From IMG/VR virus record IMGVR_UViG_2563366839_000008: a stretch of DNA of 20,624 nt. One strand, written 5' to 3'. The DNA is from a virus (lineage: Duplodnaviria; Heunggongvirae; Uroviricota; Caudoviricetes). The first letter of the stretch is position 1; the number at the start of each line of letters is the position of its first letter. A model generated the notes under the pieces. That model saw only the letters and a program-made list of their open reading frames with translations. It searched no databases and was not told where the DNA came from. Positions 1-18,920 of this stretch are shown here, piece after piece. Made by a program: the position numbers and the translations under genes.

Positions 1-1131
1 TCAAATGACCAGTTTTTTCCATTCCTTACCGCGTGCGTCGTTGTAAATATCGGTCATTTTTTGATTCGAATGGCCCAGCAAAATTTTGGTATCAACCCCC
101 TGCTCTCTGAACAATCGCTCTGATAAAGATCTCTGCTCATGGAAAGAGGGTGGGGTGCCATTAGCACGCCAGTTGTAATCCACAGAATCCCGGGCTTTTT
201 TAAATGCAACGGTTAATGTTGCTGGCTTAACCATCCCGCCGCGCTTAGCTGTCCCTTTCGCGTGATGGTGGTGCAATAGCCACGGACTAAGAACGCAATC
301 GCGGCAGGATGACACTACATCATCCAGGGTGAGATTTAATTTATCGCAACGCAGAGCCAGAGGGATGGCAATCCGGGTTCCTGTTTTTTGCTGTTCGACA
401 TGAAGATAACCATCCCGGATATCCGAAAATTGCATTTTGCAAATATCTGAAAGGCGCTGGCCTGTCATCAGTGCCAGCAGCATACCGCGCTGTAAAAAGT
501 AACCATCCTTTTCCGCTGCGTTATAAATCATCATCCACTCATCAAAAGTCAGTCGCTGTCTTGATATCCGCACCTGCGGTTTTTTTGCCGATTCTGCAGG
601 GTTAAAGCCTGGCGGGACATCGCCCGTTTGCTGAGCTTCCCGGAAAACATCGATCAGTACTTTCCTGAAAATTTGTCCCATTCTGTTATGTCCTCTGGCC
701 TTGTACTCTTCCAGTACTGATACCACATCTTTTACGGTTATGGCATCTAACGGTCTGGTGCCAAAACGTTCATCAAATACCCTGAGAGGGGCCGCTTTCT
801 GTTTCAGCGTGTTGAGTTTGATCTCGCCGTTTTCATATCTTTCCTGTTGAATTTTTCTGTAATTATTCAGAAAAATGGTAACGGTTGATGAACCGCCGGT
901 ATCACTAATAATTTTCTCCTGCAGACTGAGCATTTGTTCCATTTGCTGCCGGGCAAGACGGCTGTTCGCTTCTGCTGCAATAGTTTCTGCCAGTTTCTGG
1001 TCAATACTGCCGAGACCGTGATTTTTGCCTGTTATGGGATGCCTGTAACGCCAGTAAACTTTGTTATTTCTTTTGTCAAAATACGGAGATAATCCCGGAA
1101 CATCGGTTTTATATTTTCGCGGGCGCGCCAT
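1..1131 (-). CDS. int: Lambda-family tyrosine recombinase (phage integrase), complete 376 aa; stop codon at 1-3
   Basis: Full-length ORF. C-terminus has the HxxR box (FHEQRSLSERL), LLGH and the catalytic Tyr in TDIYNDARG, as in lambda Int; box I TGQRLSDI is upstream. First gene at the left edge, so the att site should lie just outside the window. Confidence 0.9.
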   Translation of the reverse strand: MARPRKYKTDVPGLSPYFDKRNNKVYWRYRHPITGKNHGLGSIDQKLAETIAAEANSRLARQQMEQMLSLQEKIISDTGGSSTVTIFLNNYRKIQQERYENGEIKLNTLKQKAAPLRVFDERFGTRPLDAITVKDVVSVLEEYKARGHNRMGQIFRKVLIDVFREAQQTGDVPPGFNPAESAKKPQVRISRQRLTFDEWMMIYNAAEKDGYFLQRGMLLALMTGQRLSDICKMQFSDIRDGYLHVEQQKTGTRIAIPLALRCDKLNLTLDDVVSSCRDCVLSPWLLHHHHAKGTAKRGGMVKPATLTVAFKKARDSVDYNWRANGTPPSFHEQRSLSERLFREQGVDTKILLGHSNQKMTDIYNDARGKEWKKLVI

Positions 1132-1357
1132 CTTCCAGTATCCTCTTCAAAGCAGGGTGATCTGTGGCGATCACCTCCGGCTTGTTTACCATTCCGACAA
1201 AGCGAGCTTGCGGATCCACTCGCCAGCGTCTCCCAACTTTTTTGGGGAGAGGAAATATCATTCCGGCTTTAGCGTATTTACTTAACGTACTCGGAGTAGG
1301 GACCGGTTCACTGAATTCCTCTTTTGCCCACTCAGTGAGCAGAATAAGTCTTGCCAT
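1109..1357 (-). CDS. xis: Excisionase-like small DNA-binding protein (Xis)
   Basis: 82-aa ORF directly upstream of int, overlapping its start by 23 nt. Basic motif KYAKAGMIFPLPKKVGRRWRV is typical of excisionase-family HTH proteins. No clear SD. Confidence 0.65.
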   Translation of the reverse strand: MARLILLTEWAKEEFSEPVPTPSTLSKYAKAGMIFPLPKKVGRRWRVDPQARFVGMVNKPEVIATDHPALKRILEDGAPAKI

Positions 1358-1421: not shown

Positions 1422-3893
1422 TTAAAAATCAGCCTGATTCGGGATCAGTTTTTGCCAGATAACTGAAACGTATTTTGCCTGGTAACGGGCGTCATCAAGT
1501 GCATTATGGCGCTCACCTTCGAATGGAATAGCCGTTCTGGCATCGAAGTCTATGGCTTTCCCCAGCTCAACGATTGTGCGTACATCGCGATCGTTGTAGT
1601 AACGCCACGGGCAGGGGATCCCCTGCCGTTCGTATGAACGGCGCAAAATCGTGTTGTCGAAGTTGGCTCCATTTCCCCAGACCTGAACAAAAAATTCGCC
1701 GGAGTTTTCGTCGATAAATTCCCGCAATTGCAGCAGTGCATCATCTAACGGGATTTCATCGGTCAGAATGGCAGATTGCGCCTCCCGTGATTGCTTAAGC
1801 CACCATTTAATGGTGCCACGATCAATGACTCCGCCAGCAGTATCCATATCGATGGTCTTACTAAATTCCGGCCCCATATCTCCGGTTTGCGGATCGAAAA
1901 ATATTGCACCTATTGAGATAAGCGGGGCATCGGGATTTTTTCCCATGGTTTCAAGGTTGATCATCATGTGGTGCCACATTCTGCTGGTGGATGTGATAAC
2001 GTGATGACCGTTCATCGCAATTAAGGGATCTGCCGTCTCGCCAGTTTCACTATCGCTGGCGTGATCCTGAGCGCTACCAGCATTCTCCTTGTGTGGATGT
2101 TCAGCGCCTTCCATTTCCTTCGGATCATTTTCCTGAACTTCAACCTGATTCTCTTCATCGAATGTTTCCTGGTATGTTGCGTCGCCCATTACCGCGCCAC
2201 AATCAGGGCAGTTGCCACCACCGCTTTGACCGCAGGCGGTGCAGACTTTTTCCGGTTCCTGTTGCGCTACTGGCTCAGGTTGTTTCGTTTCTGGCTCGTT
2301 TTGTAACGCATTTGGGCTGTTTTGTTCCGCTTTCTGGCCGTTCTGTTCCGTTTCTTGTTGGTTCTGATTCACTGAATCGCGGGTTTCAATCCCCTTCACC
2401 CATTTCGGATCATTCGGGTCGCTAATCCCTGCAACAAATTCACCACGTGATACAGCAAGCAACTTATTGGCGTCAGGCTGGCTGATATTGGCTGCCTGCA
2501 TAATTTTGTTTACTTCGTCAGCGGTAACTTTTACCGGCTCTGGTTGTGCGATCGTGTCAGATGCACCAGTATTTTGTTGTGAACCTGAGTATGTACTGTT
2601 TTTGCGGGCGAAATATTCTTCTTTCGTGATTTCAGTAGCCCCGGCAGCCAGCGCCTTATCCAGACCAGAAAGTTTGTTTGCGCGACCGTATTTTTCGCCA
2701 TCCTTGTCGGTGAAGAGGAAGTAGAACGGCCCTTCACGCTCTACAGATGGTTCGACTTCCACTTTGCATTCGGTTTTTTCGTTGTCCGGAATTGCCGTTT
2801 CCACTGCATCAGTTTCTGGTACTGGCGACGAGAGAGTATCAGTTGCGCTCTGATTTCTTCCTTCATCTTCAAACACGCCCTTTGTAGTCAGGTATTCAGT
2901 AATGTATTTGTTCAGTGCCACAGGGTCTTTGTGAATGTCGATCGGACGTTCACGGACAAGGCCAAAAATAGTCTGGCGGTCGTAGCGAAGGGCATCAGGC
3001 TGTTTGCGCATTGATGCCGAGATACGCTTCCAGTCTTCGCGGTCGTTGTCGATAACTTCATTTTTTGCCCAGCGATGGATGCTGCCGTCAATGTTTCCGG
3101 CATCCACATCACCAGGCCAGAGAGCGTAGGCCAGTTCGTCATCCAGTGTTTTCCATGTCTGCTTGTATTCGCGATGAATGGCAGCAATGACCGGGCTGAT
3201 TTTTCCTGTTGAATTTTCACTGTGCTGTTGATTGGTTCTGGCGCGGGCGAGATCAACAACAGACGTGTATTTTCCGGTTTCCTTGCGTTCACCTTCGCGA
3301 CGTTTTTTCCAGATGCGCATCTCTGCCTGAATTTCGGGCCATTTGGCACCAGGCTTACATTTATGCTTAACCCACCCGATGGCATGCAGCTTAAGCTCCG
3401 GATACATGGCGTTAACTTCTGGCATTTTCATCAACGCTTCAACGATATGTCCGTCGAATGTTGCCATGTCTTCCTGCAACAATTCCTGTGCGCTAATAAC
3501 CATATCAACGGTGATGTTTTCACATGTGTCGAACTTAACCATGACAGCGTTCTGTACTTCAGGGGCCAGCTTGTCAAAAGTGACGTTCATCGGATCGGAT
3601 TCAGTCTCAACCGGGACAAAAGAAGCAGACTCCTCATCCCAGCGGTTTTCCTGCATATATTCAGCATCCCATGAATCGAGGGCAGGGCGGGGTATGCCAG
3701 GTTTATCCTCGCAGACAATAAATTTATAAGCGCAGTCCTGAGCAGCCGGATAATGTTCCAGGAACTGCCAGTGAAATTTTGCTCGAGCACGGCGTTCGTC
3801 GCCAACTTCAATGGCTGTGGCTACAGCCACAGCGCCTTCTTCCCTTGTTGCCAGTTCGTCAGGAATAGCGGCGCAAATAAAGACTTTACTCAT
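1422..3893 (-). CDS. Large early-left protein (YdfE / exodeoxyribonuclease VIII-like), 823 aa, with Q/E-rich linker, CxxC..CxxC zinc ribbon and C-terminal DEDDh-like 3'-5' exonuclease domain
   Basis: Long uninterrupted ORF. C-terminal motifs WGNGANFDNTIL (Exo II-like) and HNALDDARYQAKY (Exo III-like H-x-A-x-x-D-A); internal CTACG...CPDCG zinc ribbon. Sits at the ydfE position after dicB-ydfD. Function inferred from motifs and synteny. Confidence 0.8.
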   Translation of the reverse strand: MSKVFICAAIPDELATREEGAVAVATAIEVGDERRARAKFHWQFLEHYPAAQDCAYKFIVCEDKPGIPRPALDSWDAEYMQENRWDEESASFVPVETESDPMNVTFDKLAPEVQNAVMVKFDTCENITVDMVISAQELLQEDMATFDGHIVEALMKMPEVNAMYPELKLHAIGWVKHKCKPGAKWPEIQAEMRIWKKRREGERKETGKYTSVVDLARARTNQQHSENSTGKISPVIAAIHREYKQTWKTLDDELAYALWPGDVDAGNIDGSIHRWAKNEVIDNDREDWKRISASMRKQPDALRYDRQTIFGLVRERPIDIHKDPVALNKYITEYLTTKGVFEDEGRNQSATDTLSSPVPETDAVETAIPDNEKTECKVEVEPSVEREGPFYFLFTDKDGEKYGRANKLSGLDKALAAGATEITKEEYFARKNSTYSGSQQNTGASDTIAQPEPVKVTADEVNKIMQAANISQPDANKLLAVSRGEFVAGISDPNDPKWVKGIETRDSVNQNQQETEQNGQKAEQNSPNALQNEPETKQPEPVAQQEPEKVCTACGQSGGGNCPDCGAVMGDATYQETFDEENQVEVQENDPKEMEGAEHPHKENAGSAQDHASDSETGETADPLIAMNGHHVITSTSRMWHHMMINLETMGKNPDAPLISIGAIFFDPQTGDMGPEFSKTIDMDTAGGVIDRGTIKWWLKQSREAQSAILTDEIPLDDALLQLREFIDENSGEFFVQVWGNGANFDNTILRRSYERQGIPCPWRYYNDRDVRTIVELGKAIDFDARTAIPFEGERHNALDDARYQAKYVSVIWQKLIPNQADF

Positions 3894-3986
3894 TTTGTTT
3901 TAACCTCATGACAGATTTAAGGATGAACAAATCCCTGCCATTGCTGGCATATAAGAATGAAACCGGATATTTATTACGGAACTGTT

Positions 3987-4178
3987 TTAAAGACCTGCCG
4001 GGATTTCGATATTATCCTGGTGAATAACTTTATCGACCGGGTAACAGTTACCGGGAATTTTCTGTTCGGTTGCTGCAGTCATACACTCCTGCATTGTCCT
4101 GTGAACACTGACTGCAATATCAACTGGCTCTCCGGAAACAAGAAAAACTGTCAGAACAAGTGCAAATGCTGTATTCAT
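3987..4178 (-). CDS. ydfD: YdfD-like small protein (63 aa, N-terminal hydrophobic segment; Qin-prophage lysis-associated protein family)
   Basis: Translation MNTAFALVLTVFLVSGEPVDIAVSVHRTMQECMTAATEQKIPGNCYPVDKVIHQDNIEIPAGL matches recalled YdfD. ATG overlaps the dicB stop (ATGA), indicating coupling. Confidence 0.75.
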   Translation of the reverse strand: MNTAFALVLTVFLVSGEPVDIAVSVHRTMQECMTAATEQKIPGNCYPVDKVIHQDNIEIPAGL

Positions 4179-4363
4179 TGCCAGCATCCTTTTTGTATCG
4201 GACGTAAACGGGCCAGCATTGAAAGAATGCATATTTTATTTAATAGCTCCCGTTCGTGTTTTCTCTTGTTAATGGCATCTTCAGTAAATACAGGGTTACT
4301 GATAGTGACACCAATTTCAAAACAACCTTCAGACGTATTAACGTTTGGTAATAACGTTTCCAT
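4175..4363 (-). CDS. dicB: DicB cell-division inhibitor (62 aa)
   Basis: Translation METLLPNVNTSEGCFEIGVTISNPVFTEDAINKRKHERELLNKICILSMLARLRPIQKGCWQ closely matches recalled DicB. SD GAGGA lies 7 nt upstream of the ATG at 4361-4363; directly downstream of dicF. Confidence 0.85.
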   Translation of the reverse strand: METLLPNVNTSEGCFEIGVTISNPVFTEDAINKRKHERELLNKICILSMLARLRPIQKGCWQ

Positions 4364-4537
4364 TATCGCGTCCTCAACAATGAATTTTGTGATGCGGTGC
4401 CTGGTGCCTCCAGGTGACGTTAACCAGTTAACAATTAACGCCGGATACAGAGAATCCACCCATAACACTGTTTTTGGTTTTAACTGTTCCGCGTGCGCTC
4501 AGCCGCATTCACCACATCACAAAATTCACTTTAAAAA

Positions 4538-4590
4538 GGGCGGCAGAGCAGTCACGGAGTAAAACTGATACCGCCAAACGTCACCAGAAA
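4538..4590 (-). ncRNA. dicF: DicF small RNA (53 nt; antisense regulator of ftsZ and other mRNAs)
   Basis: Minus strand reads TTTCTGGTGACGTTTGGCGGTATCAGTTTTACTCCGTGACTGCTCTGCCGCCC followed by TTTTT, matching recalled DicF including its 3' terminator hairpin (GGCGG/CCGCC). Upstream of dicB as in the Qin dicB operon. Confidence 0.85.
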
Positions 4591-4925
4591 ATTGATAACA
4601 GAGGGCGTTGCAGCGGGGTTGTCACTTAAGCGTATGGTCAACCTGACAACCCGGTGTCCTCAACGGGGGAAGGAATAACCCCGCCATACTTACCGCCGCG
4701 CCATTTCGCGGATTGCCACAACCGGAAACGCACGGTCGACGAAAATTTAACGACAGGCTATCTATGAACCAGCTACCTCGCCGGGCGCTTTCGCGTTATG
4801 GTCTGACTTTTCAGGGAAATATCCTTTCAGTAAACTGTCAGTGCCGGATGCTCACCCGTGTCCGGCGCACGCACTCCACCTCACCCGTGGAGAACTCCTT
4901 AATCACCAACCCTCAGGAGGGTGAA

Positions 4926-5201
4926 ATGTCGACTGAAAATGATGAAATCATTAACTCCCTGATACGCCAGATTAATAATTTTGATAAAGCATTGCAACAT
5001 GCTGCGGCGCGTAGTGATATAACTCTTTTAGCAATTTCATTTCTTGCATCTGTTATGGATAAAAATGAAGTCGTACGACAGAGTCTTGTTGATTATATCG
5101 ACTCGCTTCAACCCGGCACTTTCAATCATGAGAGCTTCAATCATGAGAAAGAGCATGTTAAGTCTGTAATTAATTCTCTTATTTTGAATCAAAAGAATTA
5201 A
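4926..5201 (+). CDS. Hypothetical protein, 91 aa, AT-rich, convergent with the repressor-side operon
   Basis: ATG at 4926 preceded by a strong SD (CAGGAGGGTGAA-ATG). Coding sequence is markedly AT-rich relative to its flanks. Its 3' end overlaps the 3' end of the minus-strand 110-aa gene. No recognisable domain. Confidence 0.45.
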   Translation: MSTENDEIINSLIRQINNFDKALQHAAARSDITLLAISFLASVMDKNEVVRQSLVDYIDSLQPGTFNHESFNHEKEHVKSVINSLILNQKN

Positions 5202-5511
5202 TGCTTTTTGTTGCAAAGTAATTTTCAAGGGGTTCTATTCGAATCCCTTTCTTTTTCATTAACAAGCCAAACCCCTTATCAATGATGTCCATTAGATCCA
5301 GGAAGTATTTTTCATGTAAATCCTGGTTATCAGAGAGCTGCTTCTCTTCGTACAGCCCGATAAAGGCTCGGCGTACGTTACCGGATATATTGTCGATGGT
5401 TTCTTTTTCTACGGTACTCAGGTCAAGAGTCGCCAGTTGAGAGCGAACCACATTCGATGCCATTTCCTGGAATGGTACTGGTAAATCTTTAAATTCCATC
5501 GTCAACCTCAT
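5179..5511 (-). CDS. Hypothetical protein (110 aa; 106 aa from second ATG) in the repressor-side operon
   Basis: First ATG overlaps the ydfA-like stop (TGATG coupling). Second ATG at 5497-5499 has SD GAGG 6 nt upstream. No recognisable motif; occupies the rex/sie-type position downstream of cI. Confidence 0.6.
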   Translation of the reverse strand: MRLTMEFKDLPVPFQEMASNVVRSQLATLDLSTVEKETIDNISGNVRRAFIGLYEEKQLSDNQDLHEKYFLDLMDIIDKGFGLLMKKKGIRIEPLENYFATKSINSFDSK

Positions 5512-5663
5512 CAGTCAGTGTTTCTGGTTAACCAGCGACGCGCGCCAGCTTCAGTTTTAAACGTTTTGCTTCTGGTATACGTCATCGCGGTGAACGTACC
5601 GTCCTGGTTGGGGAACACGCCACATACCAGAGATTCGCTGTTGCCAAGATCGATAGTATCCAT
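5511..5663 (-). CDS. ydfA: YdfA-like small protein (DUF1391 family), 50 aa
   Basis: Translation MDTIDLGNSESLVCGVFPNQDGTFTAMTYTRSKTFKTEAGARRWLTRNTD resembles recalled YdfA. SD GAGG 7 nt upstream of the ATG at 5661-5663. A longer in-frame start at 5744 exists, but its N-terminal extension looks non-protein-like. Confidence 0.65.
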   Translation of the reverse strand: MDTIDLGNSESLVCGVFPNQDGTFTAMTYTRSKTFKTEAGARRWLTRNTD

Positions 5664-5935
5664 GCTGACCTCATTTCCCCTTAACGCCGGGGTAGCGGAA
5701 CAAAAACCTGCTGCATAGTTATTAAAGTTGAACCCTGCCGTCATGTTCTTACGCCTCGGGCTGGCTACTTAACCCCTGACCACTGCCTGGTAACTCGAAG
5801 TATTGCCCTGCATTCTGTGGGGCGGGGTGGGTTGGTATGTTGTTAAGGTAACAAGAGTTACCTTTCGAGTCAATACAATGTTGCAAAAGGTACATTTGAG
5901 GGCATAAAAAACCCGCAATGAATGCGGGTTCTGAC

Positions 5936-6610
5936 TCAGTCTAAGTATTGATGTATTTGTGAAACTTTACCTTTAATGGTGTAACCACCATTCAGTTCGA
6001 TGGGTTTGTAAAGCGGATTCAGTGACAACAGATAGATGTTTGGTCCGTCAATCGCAACTTTTTTTAGTGTTACGTTTGGCGTTCCTTCCAATTGGATTAA
6101 GATTATTTTTCCCACCAGTTCTCTAATGTTACTTGAGCATGGTGTGATCAGCACGGTAGATCCGTCGGGGATGGTTGGGAGGCCGTTAGAGTTTGTCATC
6201 GCATCTCCCTCAACATGCAATAAAAAAGAGTTTTCAGCGGTTTTTGTCATGACATCAACCCAATTCTTAATACCAGGAATCTCGGTTACTGGACAACTCA
6301 TATCCCAATAACCAGCCTGTTCCCACGTTAAAACGGGCAACCGGGCGATGTTGTCACTAATGTAAGGGTACTGATTCAGACGCAGATCATCGGCTTTATC
6401 GTGACCGTCCTTTCCATAAAGAATCCATTCAGGAGATTTGGAAAGCAATTTTGACAGTAGATACAAATTCTCACCGTCAGGTTTTGAAGAGCCATTTTCC
6501 CATTTTGTTACGGATACACGAGATATGCCGATTGCTTTCGCAACCTGCTGTTGGGTTAATCCAACGTCTTTTCGACGATTCCGAATACGTTCGCTGATAG
6601 TGTTTTTCAT
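5936..6610 (-). CDS. CI/C2-like prophage repressor: N-terminal XRE-type HTH plus C-terminal LexA-like S24 peptidase domain with Ala in place of the catalytic Ser
   Basis: N-terminus MKNTISERIRNRRKDVGLTQQQVAKAIGISRVSVTKWENG parallels P22 C2. Ala-Gly cleavage site present (WEQAGYW). S24 motif reads EGDAMT (GCG codon) instead of GDSM; Lys retained in TLKKVAIDG. Divergent from the cro-like gene. Start chosen by alignment to C2; the ORF extends to 6709. Confidence 0.85.
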   Translation of the reverse strand: MKNTISERIRNRRKDVGLTQQQVAKAIGISRVSVTKWENGSSKPDGENLYLLSKLLSKSPEWILYGKDGHDKADDLRLNQYPYISDNIARLPVLTWEQAGYWDMSCPVTEIPGIKNWVDVMTKTAENSFLLHVEGDAMTNSNGLPTIPDGSTVLITPCSSNIRELVGKIILIQLEGTPNVTLKKVAIDGPNIYLLSLNPLYKPIELNGGYTIKGKVSQIHQYLD

Positions 6611-6701
6611 GTAACCAATGTTACTACCAAGTGATGTTGCTATGGTTGACATTGTTATGTAACTATTGTTACCCTTCTGCTCGAAATAACAGGAGAGTTT
6701 T
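6611..6701. promoter_or_regulatory. Divergent immunity promoter/operator region between the repressor and cro-like genes
   Basis: 91-bp intergenic region with repeated TGTTAC/TGTTAT half-sites, a near-palindrome GTTATGTAAC, a consensus -35 TTGACA at 6646-6651 and a candidate -35/-10 pair TTGCTA (6637-6642)/TAACTA (6660-6665) facing the cro-like gene. Exact operators not resolved. Confidence 0.4.
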
Positions 6702-11478: not shown

Positions 11479-11689
11479 AAACGGTTTGCGGGAAAAGGAG
11501 AGTTAAGTAGAATTGCAGCGGGTGCTTGAGGCTATCTGTCTCAGGCATGAACACCAAAAGGCAGATAGAGAAAAGCCCCAGTTAACATTACGCGTCCGGC
11601 AAGACGCTTAACATTAATCTGAGGCCATATCTATGCTCTACACACGTAGGTTAGCCTCTTACGTGCCGAAAGGCAAGGAGAAGCAGGCT

Positions 11690-11845
11690 ATGAAGCAGCA
11701 AAAGGCGATGCTAATCGCCCTGATCGTCATCTGTTTAACCGTCATTGTGACGGCACTGGTAACGAGGAAAGACCTCTGCGAGGTACGAATCCGAACCGGC
11801 CAGACGGAGGTCGCTGTCTTCACAGCTTACGAACCTGAGGAGTAA
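11690..11845 (+). CDS. hokD: Hok/Gef-family type I toxin (HokD/RelF-like), 51 aa
   Basis: Translation MKQQKAMLIALIVICLTVIVTALVTRKDLCEVRIRTGQTEVAVFTAYEPEE matches recalled HokD; SD AAGGAG 8 nt upstream. Structured leader at 11480-11689 and a 3' hairpin at 11853-11877. Confidence 0.85.
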   Translation: MKQQKAMLIALIVICLTVIVTALVTRKDLCEVRIRTGQTEVAVFTAYEPEE

Positions 11846-12010: not shown

Positions 12011-12661
12011 ATGAATGAAAATCAGTTAGCTCCTTGTTGGGAATTTCAACCTTATCTTGCTGAAAACTATGTTCGCCACTTGTTGGCGGAGATCGCTAAC
12101 GTACTTGAGCAGCTGTACTATCATAAGCACGCATTAGACAGCAACTGGTCTGAAGGTGTAAGGGCTTATGATTGGGTCAGAAATCATCTTATTCAAAATG
12201 AAGATGCAATTCCTGGCCTTGAGATGATTTCCAAGGGGTTGGACTATGTAGTTGCTTTAAATAAAGTTCCGCTACAATTTACCAAAGATTGCATTAATAA
12301 CCCCAAAAAGAAACATCGTCTGCGTCGAAATAAAGTAGAGTATGAGCAGCTCTCATTGTTTGGTGATGTTGAGGCTGAGCAAGATATTACATGGCGAGTC
12401 ATAGCTGAGCCTTTTTTATCCGAAGAGGGCGATGGTGAATTAGAGTCCACACTGCCTCGTTGGGAGGTAGCTCTTGTTGGATTTAATACTTATGGTGCTC
12501 AGATTAGTATAGTTTCTCATCAATCTACAGCATCGATGCCGCTTATGCCTCTTGATTATAACACACTCCCTGACGAAGCGGAGATTAATAAGGTGCCTCT
12601 TCGTCGGCGTACGAAGGATAAAGATTTGGATGTGAGCAGTGATGGAACATCAGGTGAATAA
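12011..12661 (+). CDS. Unknown protein, 216 aa; upstream partner of the HTH-metallopeptidase gene (candidate effector/toxin)
   Basis: AT-rich ORF with a weak SD, overlapping the downstream gene by 20 nt. No recognisable catalytic motif. Flanked by terminators. Confidence 0.65.
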   Translation: MNENQLAPCWEFQPYLAENYVRHLLAEIANVLEQLYYHKHALDSNWSEGVRAYDWVRNHLIQNEDAIPGLEMISKGLDYVVALNKVPLQFTKDCINNPKKKHRLRRNKVEYEQLSLFGDVEAEQDITWRVIAEPFLSEEGDGELESTLPRWEVALVGFNTYGAQISIVSHQSTASMPLMPLDYNTLPDEAEINKVPLRRRTKDKDLDVSSDGTSGE

Positions 12662-13745
12662 CTTCACTGAGTATCGGGGTGATAAGCTCAAACTAGCGAG
12701 AATGGCTGTTGGGCTTTCTTGTGAAGAGTTAGCCGAAAAAATTGGCAAGACAAAGCAATTCGTTAGCAAACTGGAGAAGGGGTGCAGGCCATCGGAGCAA
12801 TGTCTTGAGTTAATATCTTCAGCGCTTATGATTAAGTCCAGTTTTCTTTTTACTGAACGAAAATACGCTCTGGAAAGTGATGTCTGCCATTTTCGGAGTA
12901 AGAAGTCCAGGACTCAAACGCTGACTAATAGTGTATTGGCCAGGGCTGAGATTCTTAATATTATAATTTCTGCTGTTGAAGGTGAAATCGAATTTCCTGA
13001 CGTTAACATACCGGAGCACCCAGGGGCTGAATTACTTACTCCGAATGATATTGAGCGAGTGGCAGAAGATTGTCGCCGTGCCTGGAATTTAGGTCTTGGC
13101 CCTATATCATCAATGGTTAAATTGGCGGAGAGTTTAGGGGTAATCGTTGCGCATGTTACGGGAGTCGATGATCGTGTTGATGCTTTTACTGTTCACAATA
13201 ACAGGCCTGTTATCATCAGGAACAATGTTAAAAAAAGCATATGTAGATTTCGCTCTGATTTAGGTCATGAATTAGGGCATTTAGTAATGCATGAGGGCAT
13301 AACGACAGGTGATAAACTTACGGAATCACAAGCCGATCACTTTTCGAGCGCCTTATTAGTTCCCAGGTTATCTTTCATTAAAGAATTTCCACGAATACGA
13401 GGTAAGCAATTCGACTGGAATGCTCTGGTTGAATTTAAACTTAGATGGAAAATCAGCCTTAAAATGTGTATTTATCGAGCCAGCGCATTAGGCTTATTGA
13501 CCCAGGAACAGGCAAGAACTGGCTATATGCATCTTAATTCCAGAGGGTATACGAGAGTTGAACCTGGTGATGAACTTTTGCGCCCTGAAGAACCCGGCAT
13601 GCTGGCCGAGGCGATTGAAATGCTGGATGATGCAACCTGGCTAAGAATTCTTATGAAAACTGGCTTGAGCCAAGATTTAATTCGTGAGTTGTTCTCCATC
13701 AACAGACCTATTACAAATCCAAGAAATATTTTCCAGATTGTTTGA
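12642..13745 (+). CDS. XRE-family HTH fused to ImmA/IrrE-family zinc metallopeptidase (COG2856-like, HEXXH motif), 368 aa
   Basis: N-terminal HTH LKLARMAVGLSCEELAEKIGKTKQFVSKLEKG; central zinc-peptidase motif DLGHELGHLVMHE. ATG at 12642 (GTG at 12639) is coupled to the upstream gene. AT-rich. Confidence 0.8.
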   Translation: MEHQVNNFTEYRGDKLKLARMAVGLSCEELAEKIGKTKQFVSKLEKGCRPSEQCLELISSALMIKSSFLFTERKYALESDVCHFRSKKSRTQTLTNSVLARAEILNIIISAVEGEIEFPDVNIPEHPGAELLTPNDIERVAEDCRRAWNLGLGPISSMVKLAESLGVIVAHVTGVDDRVDAFTVHNNRPVIIRNNVKKSICRFRSDLGHELGHLVMHEGITTGDKLTESQADHFSSALLVPRLSFIKEFPRIRGKQFDWNALVEFKLRWKISLKMCIYRASALGLLTQEQARTGYMHLNSRGYTRVEPGDELLRPEEPGMLAEAIEMLDDATWLRILMKTGLSQDLIRELFSINRPITNPRNIFQIV

Positions 13746-13854: not shown

Positions 13855-14076
13855 ATGGACCCCGAACAGGGGGAGTGCTATTTATCTGGAAGGATTCTGT
13901 TGATGAAAATCGAAGAATTACGTGAAATTTTTAGTGAAGATGGCCTCTATGCTGTGCGCGTTGAGAATGGGGGTATTACCTACACAGCGTTAATTCCTGA
14001 TGATCATGTAGTGTTATCTGTTGAGGCATTCATTGAATACTTGGAAAGACTCGGTTTCAAGGTAGTTCGGGAATAA
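13855..14076 (+). CDS. Hypothetical small protein (73 aa; 57 aa if started at ATG 13903)
   Basis: Two possible starts: 13855 preceded by GGGAGAAGAGGG, and 13903 with GGAAGGA 8 nt upstream. No domain recognised. Confidence 0.45.
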   Translation: MDPEQGECYLSGRILLMKIEELREIFSEDGLYAVRVENGGITYTALIPDDHVVLSVEAFIEYLERLGFKVVRE

Positions 14077-18173: not shown

Positions 18174-18464
18174 ACAACGAATCCTTCTGATCTGCTTTTG
18201 CGGGGCTTTTTTGTATCCGCTCCATGCCCGGCGTATAAGCGGAGGTTGGTCAGTTTTCTAAAAATTGAAATACCTCACAATTCAGCCAGTTAATGGTTGT
18301 TTGTCTGGCGAAGAGTTTGTAAATAAAAAAACGCATGGTGAATCCCCCTAAGCGGCGGGGCGAATCAGCAGTCAGTTCTGGGATAATCGCGGGTTCGTAT
18401 GCTGATGCCGGACTCACCGGGAGGCACCCGGCACCATGCATCATGGTCATCCCCTTGTATGATA

Positions 18465-18488
18465 CCCCTCTCCGGAGGGGTATTTTTT
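18465..18488 (+). terminator. Rho-independent terminator
   Basis: CCCCTCTCCGGAGGGG hairpin followed by TATTTTTT. Confidence 0.55.
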
Positions 18489-18920
18489 GGATAAAAAAGC
18501 CCGCGCTGGGAGGCACGGGCGGCAAGGAATAAAACGTGAAGAAATTTTCACAGGCGCATAATAATCCGATGTTGCCAGATTTTGCAACTGCATCATCTGG
18601 TTATTATGTGAGCTGGAAAATCAGATTCTGTATGGACTGAAGCCATGCTGTTATTTAGGGCCAAAGAGCTGGCTTTTTCCCGCCTTCTCTCCAGTAACGA
18701 TTAATGAGAAAAGAATGAAATGCTTTTCCTGGGGAGGAGGGCAGTAGAAAAAAGAACCCGCCAGCAAAAATATGGGGGATGAACAGCTTTTGCTACTCAG
18801 GTTGCTGGCGGGTATGGTTCTTCATGAAATAAGAATGTTACGCGGTATTTTTAATGAAAATGATAATTATTGTCAATTGGTTGTGCGTATTTTTTCATAC
18901 ATGACTGGTAAAGGTGATTC

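Follow-up and report, generated by a model that had tools for sequence, protein, structure and literature searches.

The dicBF operon of Qin and its closest relatives

The dicBF operon of the Qin prophage in Escherichia coli K-12 is transcribed from a start upstream of ydfA, with a 1,608-nt ydfABC-dicFB-ydfD transcript as the longest species (PMC10448788). RNase III and RNase E process the RNA into 190-nt and 53-nt DicF species (PMC10448788), and a review reports an alternative 72-nt DicF species with a 3' end generated by RNase III (PMC9438474, citing Faubladier et al. 1990). DicF represses ftsZ, xylR, and pykA (PMC5069750), and a review lists manX and, in EHEC, pchA among its targets (PMC9438474). 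DicB prevents the formation of Z rings via MinC and blocks ManYZ-dependent entry of phage DNA (PMC6832061), while YdfD binds IspG and lyses dividing cells, which is prevented by DicB or SulA (PMC8835842). The K-12 operon is not induced by the SOS response and requires the antirepressor Rem (PMC5069750). Balasubramanian et al. (2016) showed that numerous strains and several O157 prophages contain the locus, obtained no match to DicB or DicF from about 2,000 phage genomes, and proposed that the operon persists in defective prophages only (PMC5069750).

The leader of kilR in the Rac prophages of K-12 and Rac-SA53 shows the same order, with a DicF-like terminator hairpin (39 to 41 bits), an element resembling the small RNA STnc100, and the gene of a small division inhibitor. 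The inhibitor in this case, KilR, has no relationship to DicB, and the DicF-like RNA of Rac deviates in its 5' tail and loop and remains below the Rfam threshold. In phage lambda, kil transiently blocks formation of the FtsZ ring; this small product of the early left operon resembles the dicBF system in its way of working but has neither a sequence relationship to it nor an sRNA partner. In the immI region of phage P1 (c4 antisense RNA, icd, ant), a processed regulatory RNA and, immediately behind it, a small division inhibitor are encoded on one transcript.

The DicF-dicB-ydfD cassette

The stretch of viral DNA analyzed here, called the window, comprises 20,624 nt in full length and contains a dicBF cassette at positions 3987 to 4590, all of it on the minus strand. 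This is exactly the span given in a preliminary description. The features of the operon are as follows.

3936-3949, minus strand: weak terminator-like hairpin in the gap between ydfD and the exonuclease gene (consensus scan only)
3987-4178, minus strand: ydfD, lysis protein of 63 amino acids (PF07358/DUF1482)
4175-4363, minus strand: dicB, division inhibitor of 62 amino acids (PF05358)
4379-4530, minus strand: STnc100/PasD-like structured RNA in the DicF-dicB spacer (sub-threshold RF02076 match and family structure)
4538-4590, minus strand: DicF sRNA of 53 nt with terminator hairpin and T-run (RF00039 match and identity with K-12)
4591-4911, minus strand: untranslated leader of about 320 nt 5' of DicF, with the start of the 190-nt DicF precursor inside (blastn and PMC10448788)
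5179-5744, minus strand: promoter-proximal small ORFs of the operon (PF07151, E 6.6e-27, and phrog_6937)
5179-5511, minus strand: ORF of 106 to 110 amino acids, part of the small-ORF region
5511-5663, minus strand: ydfA-like DUF1391 ORF, part of the small-ORF region

The Rfam family RF00039 matched DicF at positions 4538 to 4589/90 over its full length (model positions 1 to 52 of 52; 76.7 bits, E 1.2e-15, gathering score 48). The sRNA shows 100% identity with the K-12 copy, which extends to 10 nt upstream and to the downstream T-run (blastn), and every base in the regions pairing with ftsZ, xylR, pykA, and manX is that of K-12. The dicB product matched PF05358 from position 1 to 62 of 62 (127.4 bits, cut-off 27, E 1.7e-37) and agrees with DicB of K-12 in 55 of 62 residues (89%), with five of the seven substitutions located within the C-terminal 16 residues; a Shine-Dalgarno sequence, GAGGA, is present at 4375 to 4371. 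YdfD, for which RefSeq uses the name "lysis protein YdfD," matched PF07358 (DUF1482) with 92 bits (cut-off 25, E 2.1e-26) and is identical to its K-12 counterpart at 61 of 63 positions (97%). Each of these exact DicB and YdfD sequences occurs on at least 1000 contigs.

The identities assigned to the three genes in the preliminary description are borne out by the Rfam and Pfam matches and by the comparison with dicF, dicB, and ydfD of K-12 Qin, which it had proposed as a check and which confirmed the genes as homologues. The same applies to the translational overlap: the dicB stop codon TGA (4177-4175) and the ydfD start codon ATG (4178-4176) share the sequence ATGA, as in K-12. The cassette had also been called contiguous. 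This holds for the neighborhood of DicF, dicB, and ydfD, but 174 nt (4364 to 4537) part DicF from the dicB start, and this spacer is not empty.

Gene order, the ATGA overlap, and the position of ydfA upstream are shared with Qin, and the DNA from 3801 to 4911, which covers the leader, is 97.6% identical to K-12 (blastn). Because of this identity, the published processing sites are conserved, and the properties known from Qin in K-12, such as the targets and the RNA processing, should carry over to the cassette. The hairpin at 3936 to 3949 is compatible with the end of the 1,608-nt K-12 transcript (PMC10448788). A structured RNA in the leader at 4591 to 4911 was considered and rejected, with a fold no better than that of shuffled sequences (z −1.8) and no match in Rfam.

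Upstream of the leader, ydfB and ydfC of Qin are replaced here by the 106- to 110-amino-acid ORF on the minus strand and a convergent plus-strand ORF of 91 amino acids, and homology to K-12 picks up again at 5532 to 5701 (blastn). The 91-amino-acid ORF (4926 to 5201) is situated at the place of ydfC in K-12, has no family match, and is found on at least 1000 contigs. Oriented towards the leftward operon, it shares 23 nt with the 3' end of the 110-amino-acid ORF, and a terminator-like sequence is present at 5227 to 5249. The layout of both ORFs is similar to that of rac10/rac11 in Rac-SA53, but an assignment to these genes was rejected as no similarity was found.

Promoters, repressor, and inducibility

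The elements that may control the operon are located upstream of the small ORFs.

5845-5873, minus strand: PL-like promoter TTGACT-17-TACCTT (read from the sequence)
5848-5861 (on PL), 6611-6624, and 6659-6672: operator GTAAC-N4-GTTAC (by sequence)
5930-5906, minus strand: intrinsic terminator of the cI-like repressor gene
5936-6652, minus strand: cI-like repressor with HTH and S24 fold (Pfam HTH_3 and Peptidase_S24)

One of the three operator copies is located over PL, one over a PR-like promoter (TTGACA-17/18-TACCCT) in the divergent region of cI and cro, and one within the initial codons of the repressor gene. Because PL and PR carry the same type of operator, the dicBF operon is, as judged from this layout, the leftward early (PL) operon under the control of the resident repressor. 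This differs from Qin, which uses DicA instead of a cI-like repressor with HTH and S24 fold and has different operators.

The repressor aligns over its full length with lambda cI (PDB 3bdn). It retains the catalytic Lys and QAG as the cleavage site, and the S24 motif G-D/N-S-M is changed to G-D-A-M, which replaces the Ser by an Ala. In an alignment of 19 sequences (the window copy and 18 homologues), the nucleophile position was occupied by Ser in 14 and by Ala in 4 sequences and was part of a degenerate motif in 1; the Ala carriers include the window copy and a Salmonella protein with 68% identity. The variants S119A of LexA and S149A of cI do not cleave themselves. Of the Ser-Lys dyad of S24 and the Ala-Gly site that characterize an inducible repressor, the Ser is lacking here, so that direct SOS induction of the prophage is doubtful. 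SOS induction of the operon via the S24-fold repressor had been considered and was dropped after the alignment revealed this exchange.

A Rem-like ORF of 57 amino acids is present at 13903 to 14076 on the plus strand, the first 26 residues of which are 73% identical to Rem of K-12 Qin. Its C-terminal half differs from Rem, and RefSeq annotates it as a fragment; judged from this composition, it could be an antirepressor of another specificity. A search for LexA boxes at this ORF or elsewhere yielded matches that were not above chance and none near the ORF. No relative of the repressor with more than 44% identity was found in deposited phage genomes (50,697 records), and no N-like arginine-rich protein was found among the PL-proximal ORFs, while the DicF terminator and the hairpin behind ydfD stand between PL and the exo-xis-int genes. 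These findings on the repressor, the missing N-like protein, and the terminators do not make the prophage defective.

Flanking genes and completeness of the prophage

Downstream of ydfD, the operon is followed by three genes up to the border of the window.

1-1131, minus strand: int, lambda-type integrase of 376 amino acids, next to attL in ompW (Arm-DNA-bind_1, Phage_int_M, and Phage_integrase as Arm-binding, central, and catalytic domains)
1109-1357, minus strand: xis, excisionase (PF07825; phrog_629 over positions 1-81 of 82)
1422-3893, minus strand: exonuclease of 823 amino acids, counterpart of the K-12 ydfE remnant (phrog_2082 over positions 1-823 of 823)

The coverage of these PHROG and Pfam families agrees with the claim of the preliminary description that the flanking genes are full-length, unlike those of K-12 Qin: in the TG1 copy of that prophage, IS2 cuts the exonuclease gene to 768 nt and the integrase gene is a pseudogene. 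The only Pfam domain of the exonuclease is an Rv2179c-like 3'-5' exonuclease domain with an exoribonuclease fold in its C-terminal part (PF16473, E 1.7e-64). Several phage records label this protein exodeoxyribonuclease VIII (RecE). No RecT or Bet partner for the exonuclease is present, and the RecE label looks doubtful from the domain content.

The window starts at the stop codon of the integrase gene, abutting ompW, and represents the left half of a lambda-like prophage of about 48.3 kb in the complete E. coli genomes MY1-8 and elppa6. It matched MY1-8 and elppa6 at 100% and 2017-03-3CC at 100% or nearly so; the whole window was found at a coverage of at least 80% in only five genomes, always at ompW. 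From left to right, the order is int, xis, exonuclease, ydfD, dicB, DicF, the leader, the small ORFs, and the PL-like promoter, followed by the cI-like repressor, cro, a YdaT-family gene, an O-like replication gene, hok/sok, and RosmerTA, and finally by a DUF968 gene, Q, a DNA methylase gene, STnc100, holin, and lysozyme.

As in K-12 Qin, a sok antisense RNA (117 bits) and hokD form a type I toxin-antitoxin system (11520-11845, plus strand). Between hokD and the Rem-like ORF, a RosmerTA-type anti-phage defense pair is located (12011-13745, plus strand), consisting of RmrT (216 amino acids, E 4.6e-25) and RmrA (HTH and M78 peptidase, 368 amino acids, E 6e-105).

At each border of the prophage, a diverged copy of the 3' end of ompW is found; on one side it is supplied by the phage, and on the other it is the displaced fragment of ompW. 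In elppa6 and MY1-8, the lambda-type set Nu1-A-W-B-C-D-E-FI-FII-Z-U-V-G-T-H-M-L-K-I-J is complete, so that the search for intact structural genes elsewhere in the prophage, also proposed beforehand, was successful in genomes with an identical window. According to the ORFs of the window and the annotation of elppa6 and MY1-8, the immunity, replication, Q, and lysis functions and every essential gene for head and tail are intact. Damage is limited to a split stf gene, fragments of tfa genes, and a frameshifted lom gene in one of the strains. Between the lysis and terminase genes, past the right end of the window, iss (a bor-like serum-survival lipoprotein gene) and a TonB-family gene were found (L001 37017-38117).

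Judged by these genes, the prophage is intact at the level of gene content. The former characterization as an "apparently intact prophage" holds in this sense, with att ends, int, xis, and all essential genes present, and needs to be restricted with respect to stf, tfa, and, in one strain, lom. A second assumption, that of a functional relative of Qin, is correct for the gene identities and the left arm; function is presumed and is made doubtful by a GDAM repressor, an immunity type absent from phage records, and the lack of an N-like factor. With intact exo, xis, and int genes, a site in ompW, and a full structural module, the prophage differs from Qin. It is a mosaic with the left arm and a few more genes in common with Qin, but with another immunity region and integration site, and is not a close relative overall.

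Distribution of the cassette

An 801-bp probe over ydfD, dicB, and DicF was used to search 5426 complete E. coli genomes. Matches were found in 4660 of these (about 86%), with a probe coverage of at least 80% in 3827 genomes and with a median of 2 and a maximum of 9 copies per genome. Among deposited phage genomes, 38 records contain the cassette. One of them is the isolated phage HannyBb from bird feces, the complete genome of which (45.3 kb) displays the same int-xis-exo-ydfD-dicB-dicF arm. The isolated phages with the cassette arm are relatives with other immunity regions.

Since 4660 of 5426 genomes carry it and isolated phages do so as well, the DicF-DicB-YdfD cassette is an already known, very widespread, and ordinary module. 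The present databases close the gap in phage genomes reported previously (PMC5069750): the gene-complete prophages and HannyBb demonstrate that the cassette also rides on complete lambdoid phages, some of them viable. Its presence on complete phages fits a role in the phage life cycle.

Possible function of the operon

As the distal part of the PL operon in an ompW-integrated lambda-like prophage, the dicBF cassette very probably serves the takeover of host division and the exclusion of superinfecting phages, as an analogue of lambda kil. The grounds for this assignment are the identity, integrity, order, and overlap of the genes, the layout of promoters and operators, and the gene completeness as read from the sequence, while the targets and the RNA processing are taken from the K-12 literature.

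When the repressor leaves the GTAAC-N4-GTTAC operators, transcription from PL would proceed through the ydfA-like ORFs and the 320-nt leader into DicF, and most transcripts would end at the DicF terminator. RNase E should trim these terminated transcripts to the 53-nt DicF, which would pair with the ftsZ, xylR, pykA, and manX mRNAs. Read-through transcripts would yield the structured spacer RNA, dicB, and ydfD. DicB may then bind MinC, which would prevent a Z ring, and may also stop the ManYZ-dependent DNA entry of other phages. YdfD, with a translation coupled to that of dicB, would inhibit IspG and lyse dividing cells but should be restrained while DicB blocks division. The operon would be expressed during lytic growth of the prophage, and its role may be a transient, kil-like block of host division together with the exclusion of competing phages.

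It is unlikely, in comparison, that the prophage is complete in its genes but locked or defective and that the cassette serves the lysogen by exclusion of ManYZ-dependent phages, tuning of metabolism, or control of cell division under stress, as proposed for Qin. Roles at the level of the lysogen have been published (PMC6832061, PMC5069750). The GDAM instead of the GDSM motif in the repressor, the absence of the immunity type from the 50,697 phage records, the damage to stf and tfa, and the five ompW sites as the only occurrences of the whole window (coverage of at least 80%) would all be compatible with a locked prophage, but the genes essential in lambda, both att ends, int, xis, Q, and the lysis genes are all intact. 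The damaged genes stf, tfa, and lom are dispensable in lambda. Moreover, a non-cleavable repressor does not necessarily lock a prophage, since antirepressors can inactivate such repressors and a Rem-like ORF is present. That dicB and ydfD form a toxin/antidote-like pair mainly for abortive killing or addiction, with YdfD lysing the cells once DicB is lost, is improbable in spite of the overlap of both genes and the prevention of YdfD lysis by co-expressed DicB or SulA (PMC8835842): DicB itself is toxic by blocking division, the two genes share a transcript on which the "antidote" gene comes first, no PADLOC defense model matches either protein, and some copies keep dicB without ydfD (PPompW records, query 303-701 only). 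PADLOC has no model for the exonuclease either.

A structured RNA between DicF and dicB

The element at 4379 to 4530 in the spacer between DicF and dicB matched STnc100 (RF02076) with 38.7 bits (E 2.2e-6), below the gathering score of 47, and because of this score, it is designated a divergent relative of STnc100, as indicated by sequence and predicted fold, and is not called a member. A kinship of PasD and STnc100 has been described (bioRxiv 10.64898/2026.05.13.724894). STnc100/PasD and the spacer element have in common an architecture of five helices as well as conserved sequences at the junction and in the hairpins, whereas the spacer copy is sub-threshold and embedded into an operon and possesses a closing helix of 21 bp instead of 7 to 8 bp. 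The same spacer element is carried by K-12 Qin (34.4 bits).

The conserved motif of the element, CACCTGGAGGCACCAGGCACC, is located at 4396 to 4416. A 21-nt core, CACCNGGAGGCACCNGGCACC, exists in exactly two copies in the window, compared to 0 expected, and the two copies differ by a compensatory change from G-C to U-A. A scan of viral contigs for the core yielded at least 120 stretches, and 135 copies were examined when further loci were included. The G-C form was present in 109 and the U-A form in 26 of these; among the matches listed, 14 of the 26 U-A copies are located between DicF and dicB, 9 before kilR, and 3 near neither gene.

An alignment of 59 representatives led to a structure of five helices, in which compensatory changes occur at 15 of the 27 pairs. 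In this structure, 94.7% of the cells were paired, compared to 39 to 46% when the partners were slid, and the covariation score was 0.456, compared to at most 0.136 with slid partners and reached by 0 of 500 shuffles. In the spacer element, the closing helix encloses a core of four hairpins. It pairs 4530-4510 with 4379-4399 in the window, giving 21 contiguous pairs; it is extended to 20 to 26 bp in the dicB/kilR-type copies and was kept in 11 of 11 distinct variants, with compensatory changes in two. The Rac element, at L005 2474-2707 (minus strand) and L129 6590-6833 (minus strand) together with the DicF-like hairpin (Rac-SA53, K-12), has such a long closing helix, too, and the K-12 Rac copy contains a G-to-A change in a conserved hairpin.

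The stand-alone copies of STnc100 have a promoter, TTGAC-17-TAAATT, and a terminator. No promoter or terminator could be recognized for the spacer element, which has a GAATTT in register but no −35 element and runs into dicB. Two other assignments of the element were rejected. The likeness to immI of P1 is one of analogy only; no match to the Rfam C4 family was obtained here at E ≤ 5, which speaks against a P1-type C4 RNA. A nut- or put-like antitermination site is not compatible with the lack of a third copy in the PR operon and with stand-alone copies that precede terminators. A genuine STnc100 sRNA with terminator (114.5 bits) is located in the late region at 18304 to 18492 on the plus strand, between the DNA methylase and holin genes.

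Counted from the 5' end of DicF, the position of nucleotide 72 is 4519. Because the end of the 72-nt DicF species would then fall into the middle of the closing helix, this 21-bp helix is likely an RNase III site. Cleavage of the helix would generate three products, DicF, a structured RNA of about 110 nt, and a dicB-ydfD mRNA, the latter with a leader of about 25 nt and a freed Shine-Dalgarno sequence. The complete reading, a divergent STnc100/PasD-family RNA instead of a passive untranslated region, with a closing helix that serves as the RNase III site producing the 72-nt DicF, is put forward tentatively. Since Rac exhibits the same order of a DicF-like RNA, the element, and kilR, the arrangement suggests a conserved RNA-processing hub that gates the division inhibitors of prophages.

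In the literature, no paper was found that links STnc100 or PasD to the leaders of dicB or kilR, and neither dicF nor dicB is named in a 2026 preprint about these two RNAs (bioRxiv 10.64898/2026.05.13.724894). The spacer RNA may be the sole part of these findings that is new. It would account structurally for the RNase III processing already known for the operon, and it ties the regulation of dicB and kilR to the STnc100/PasD family of sRNAs. STnc100-like cores were also seen in the tRNA/ban operons of two other phages: in phage P7 (L004 2501-2616, minus strand), the core is located just upstream of terB and beside tRNA genes, and in phage D6, it was identified by BLAST.
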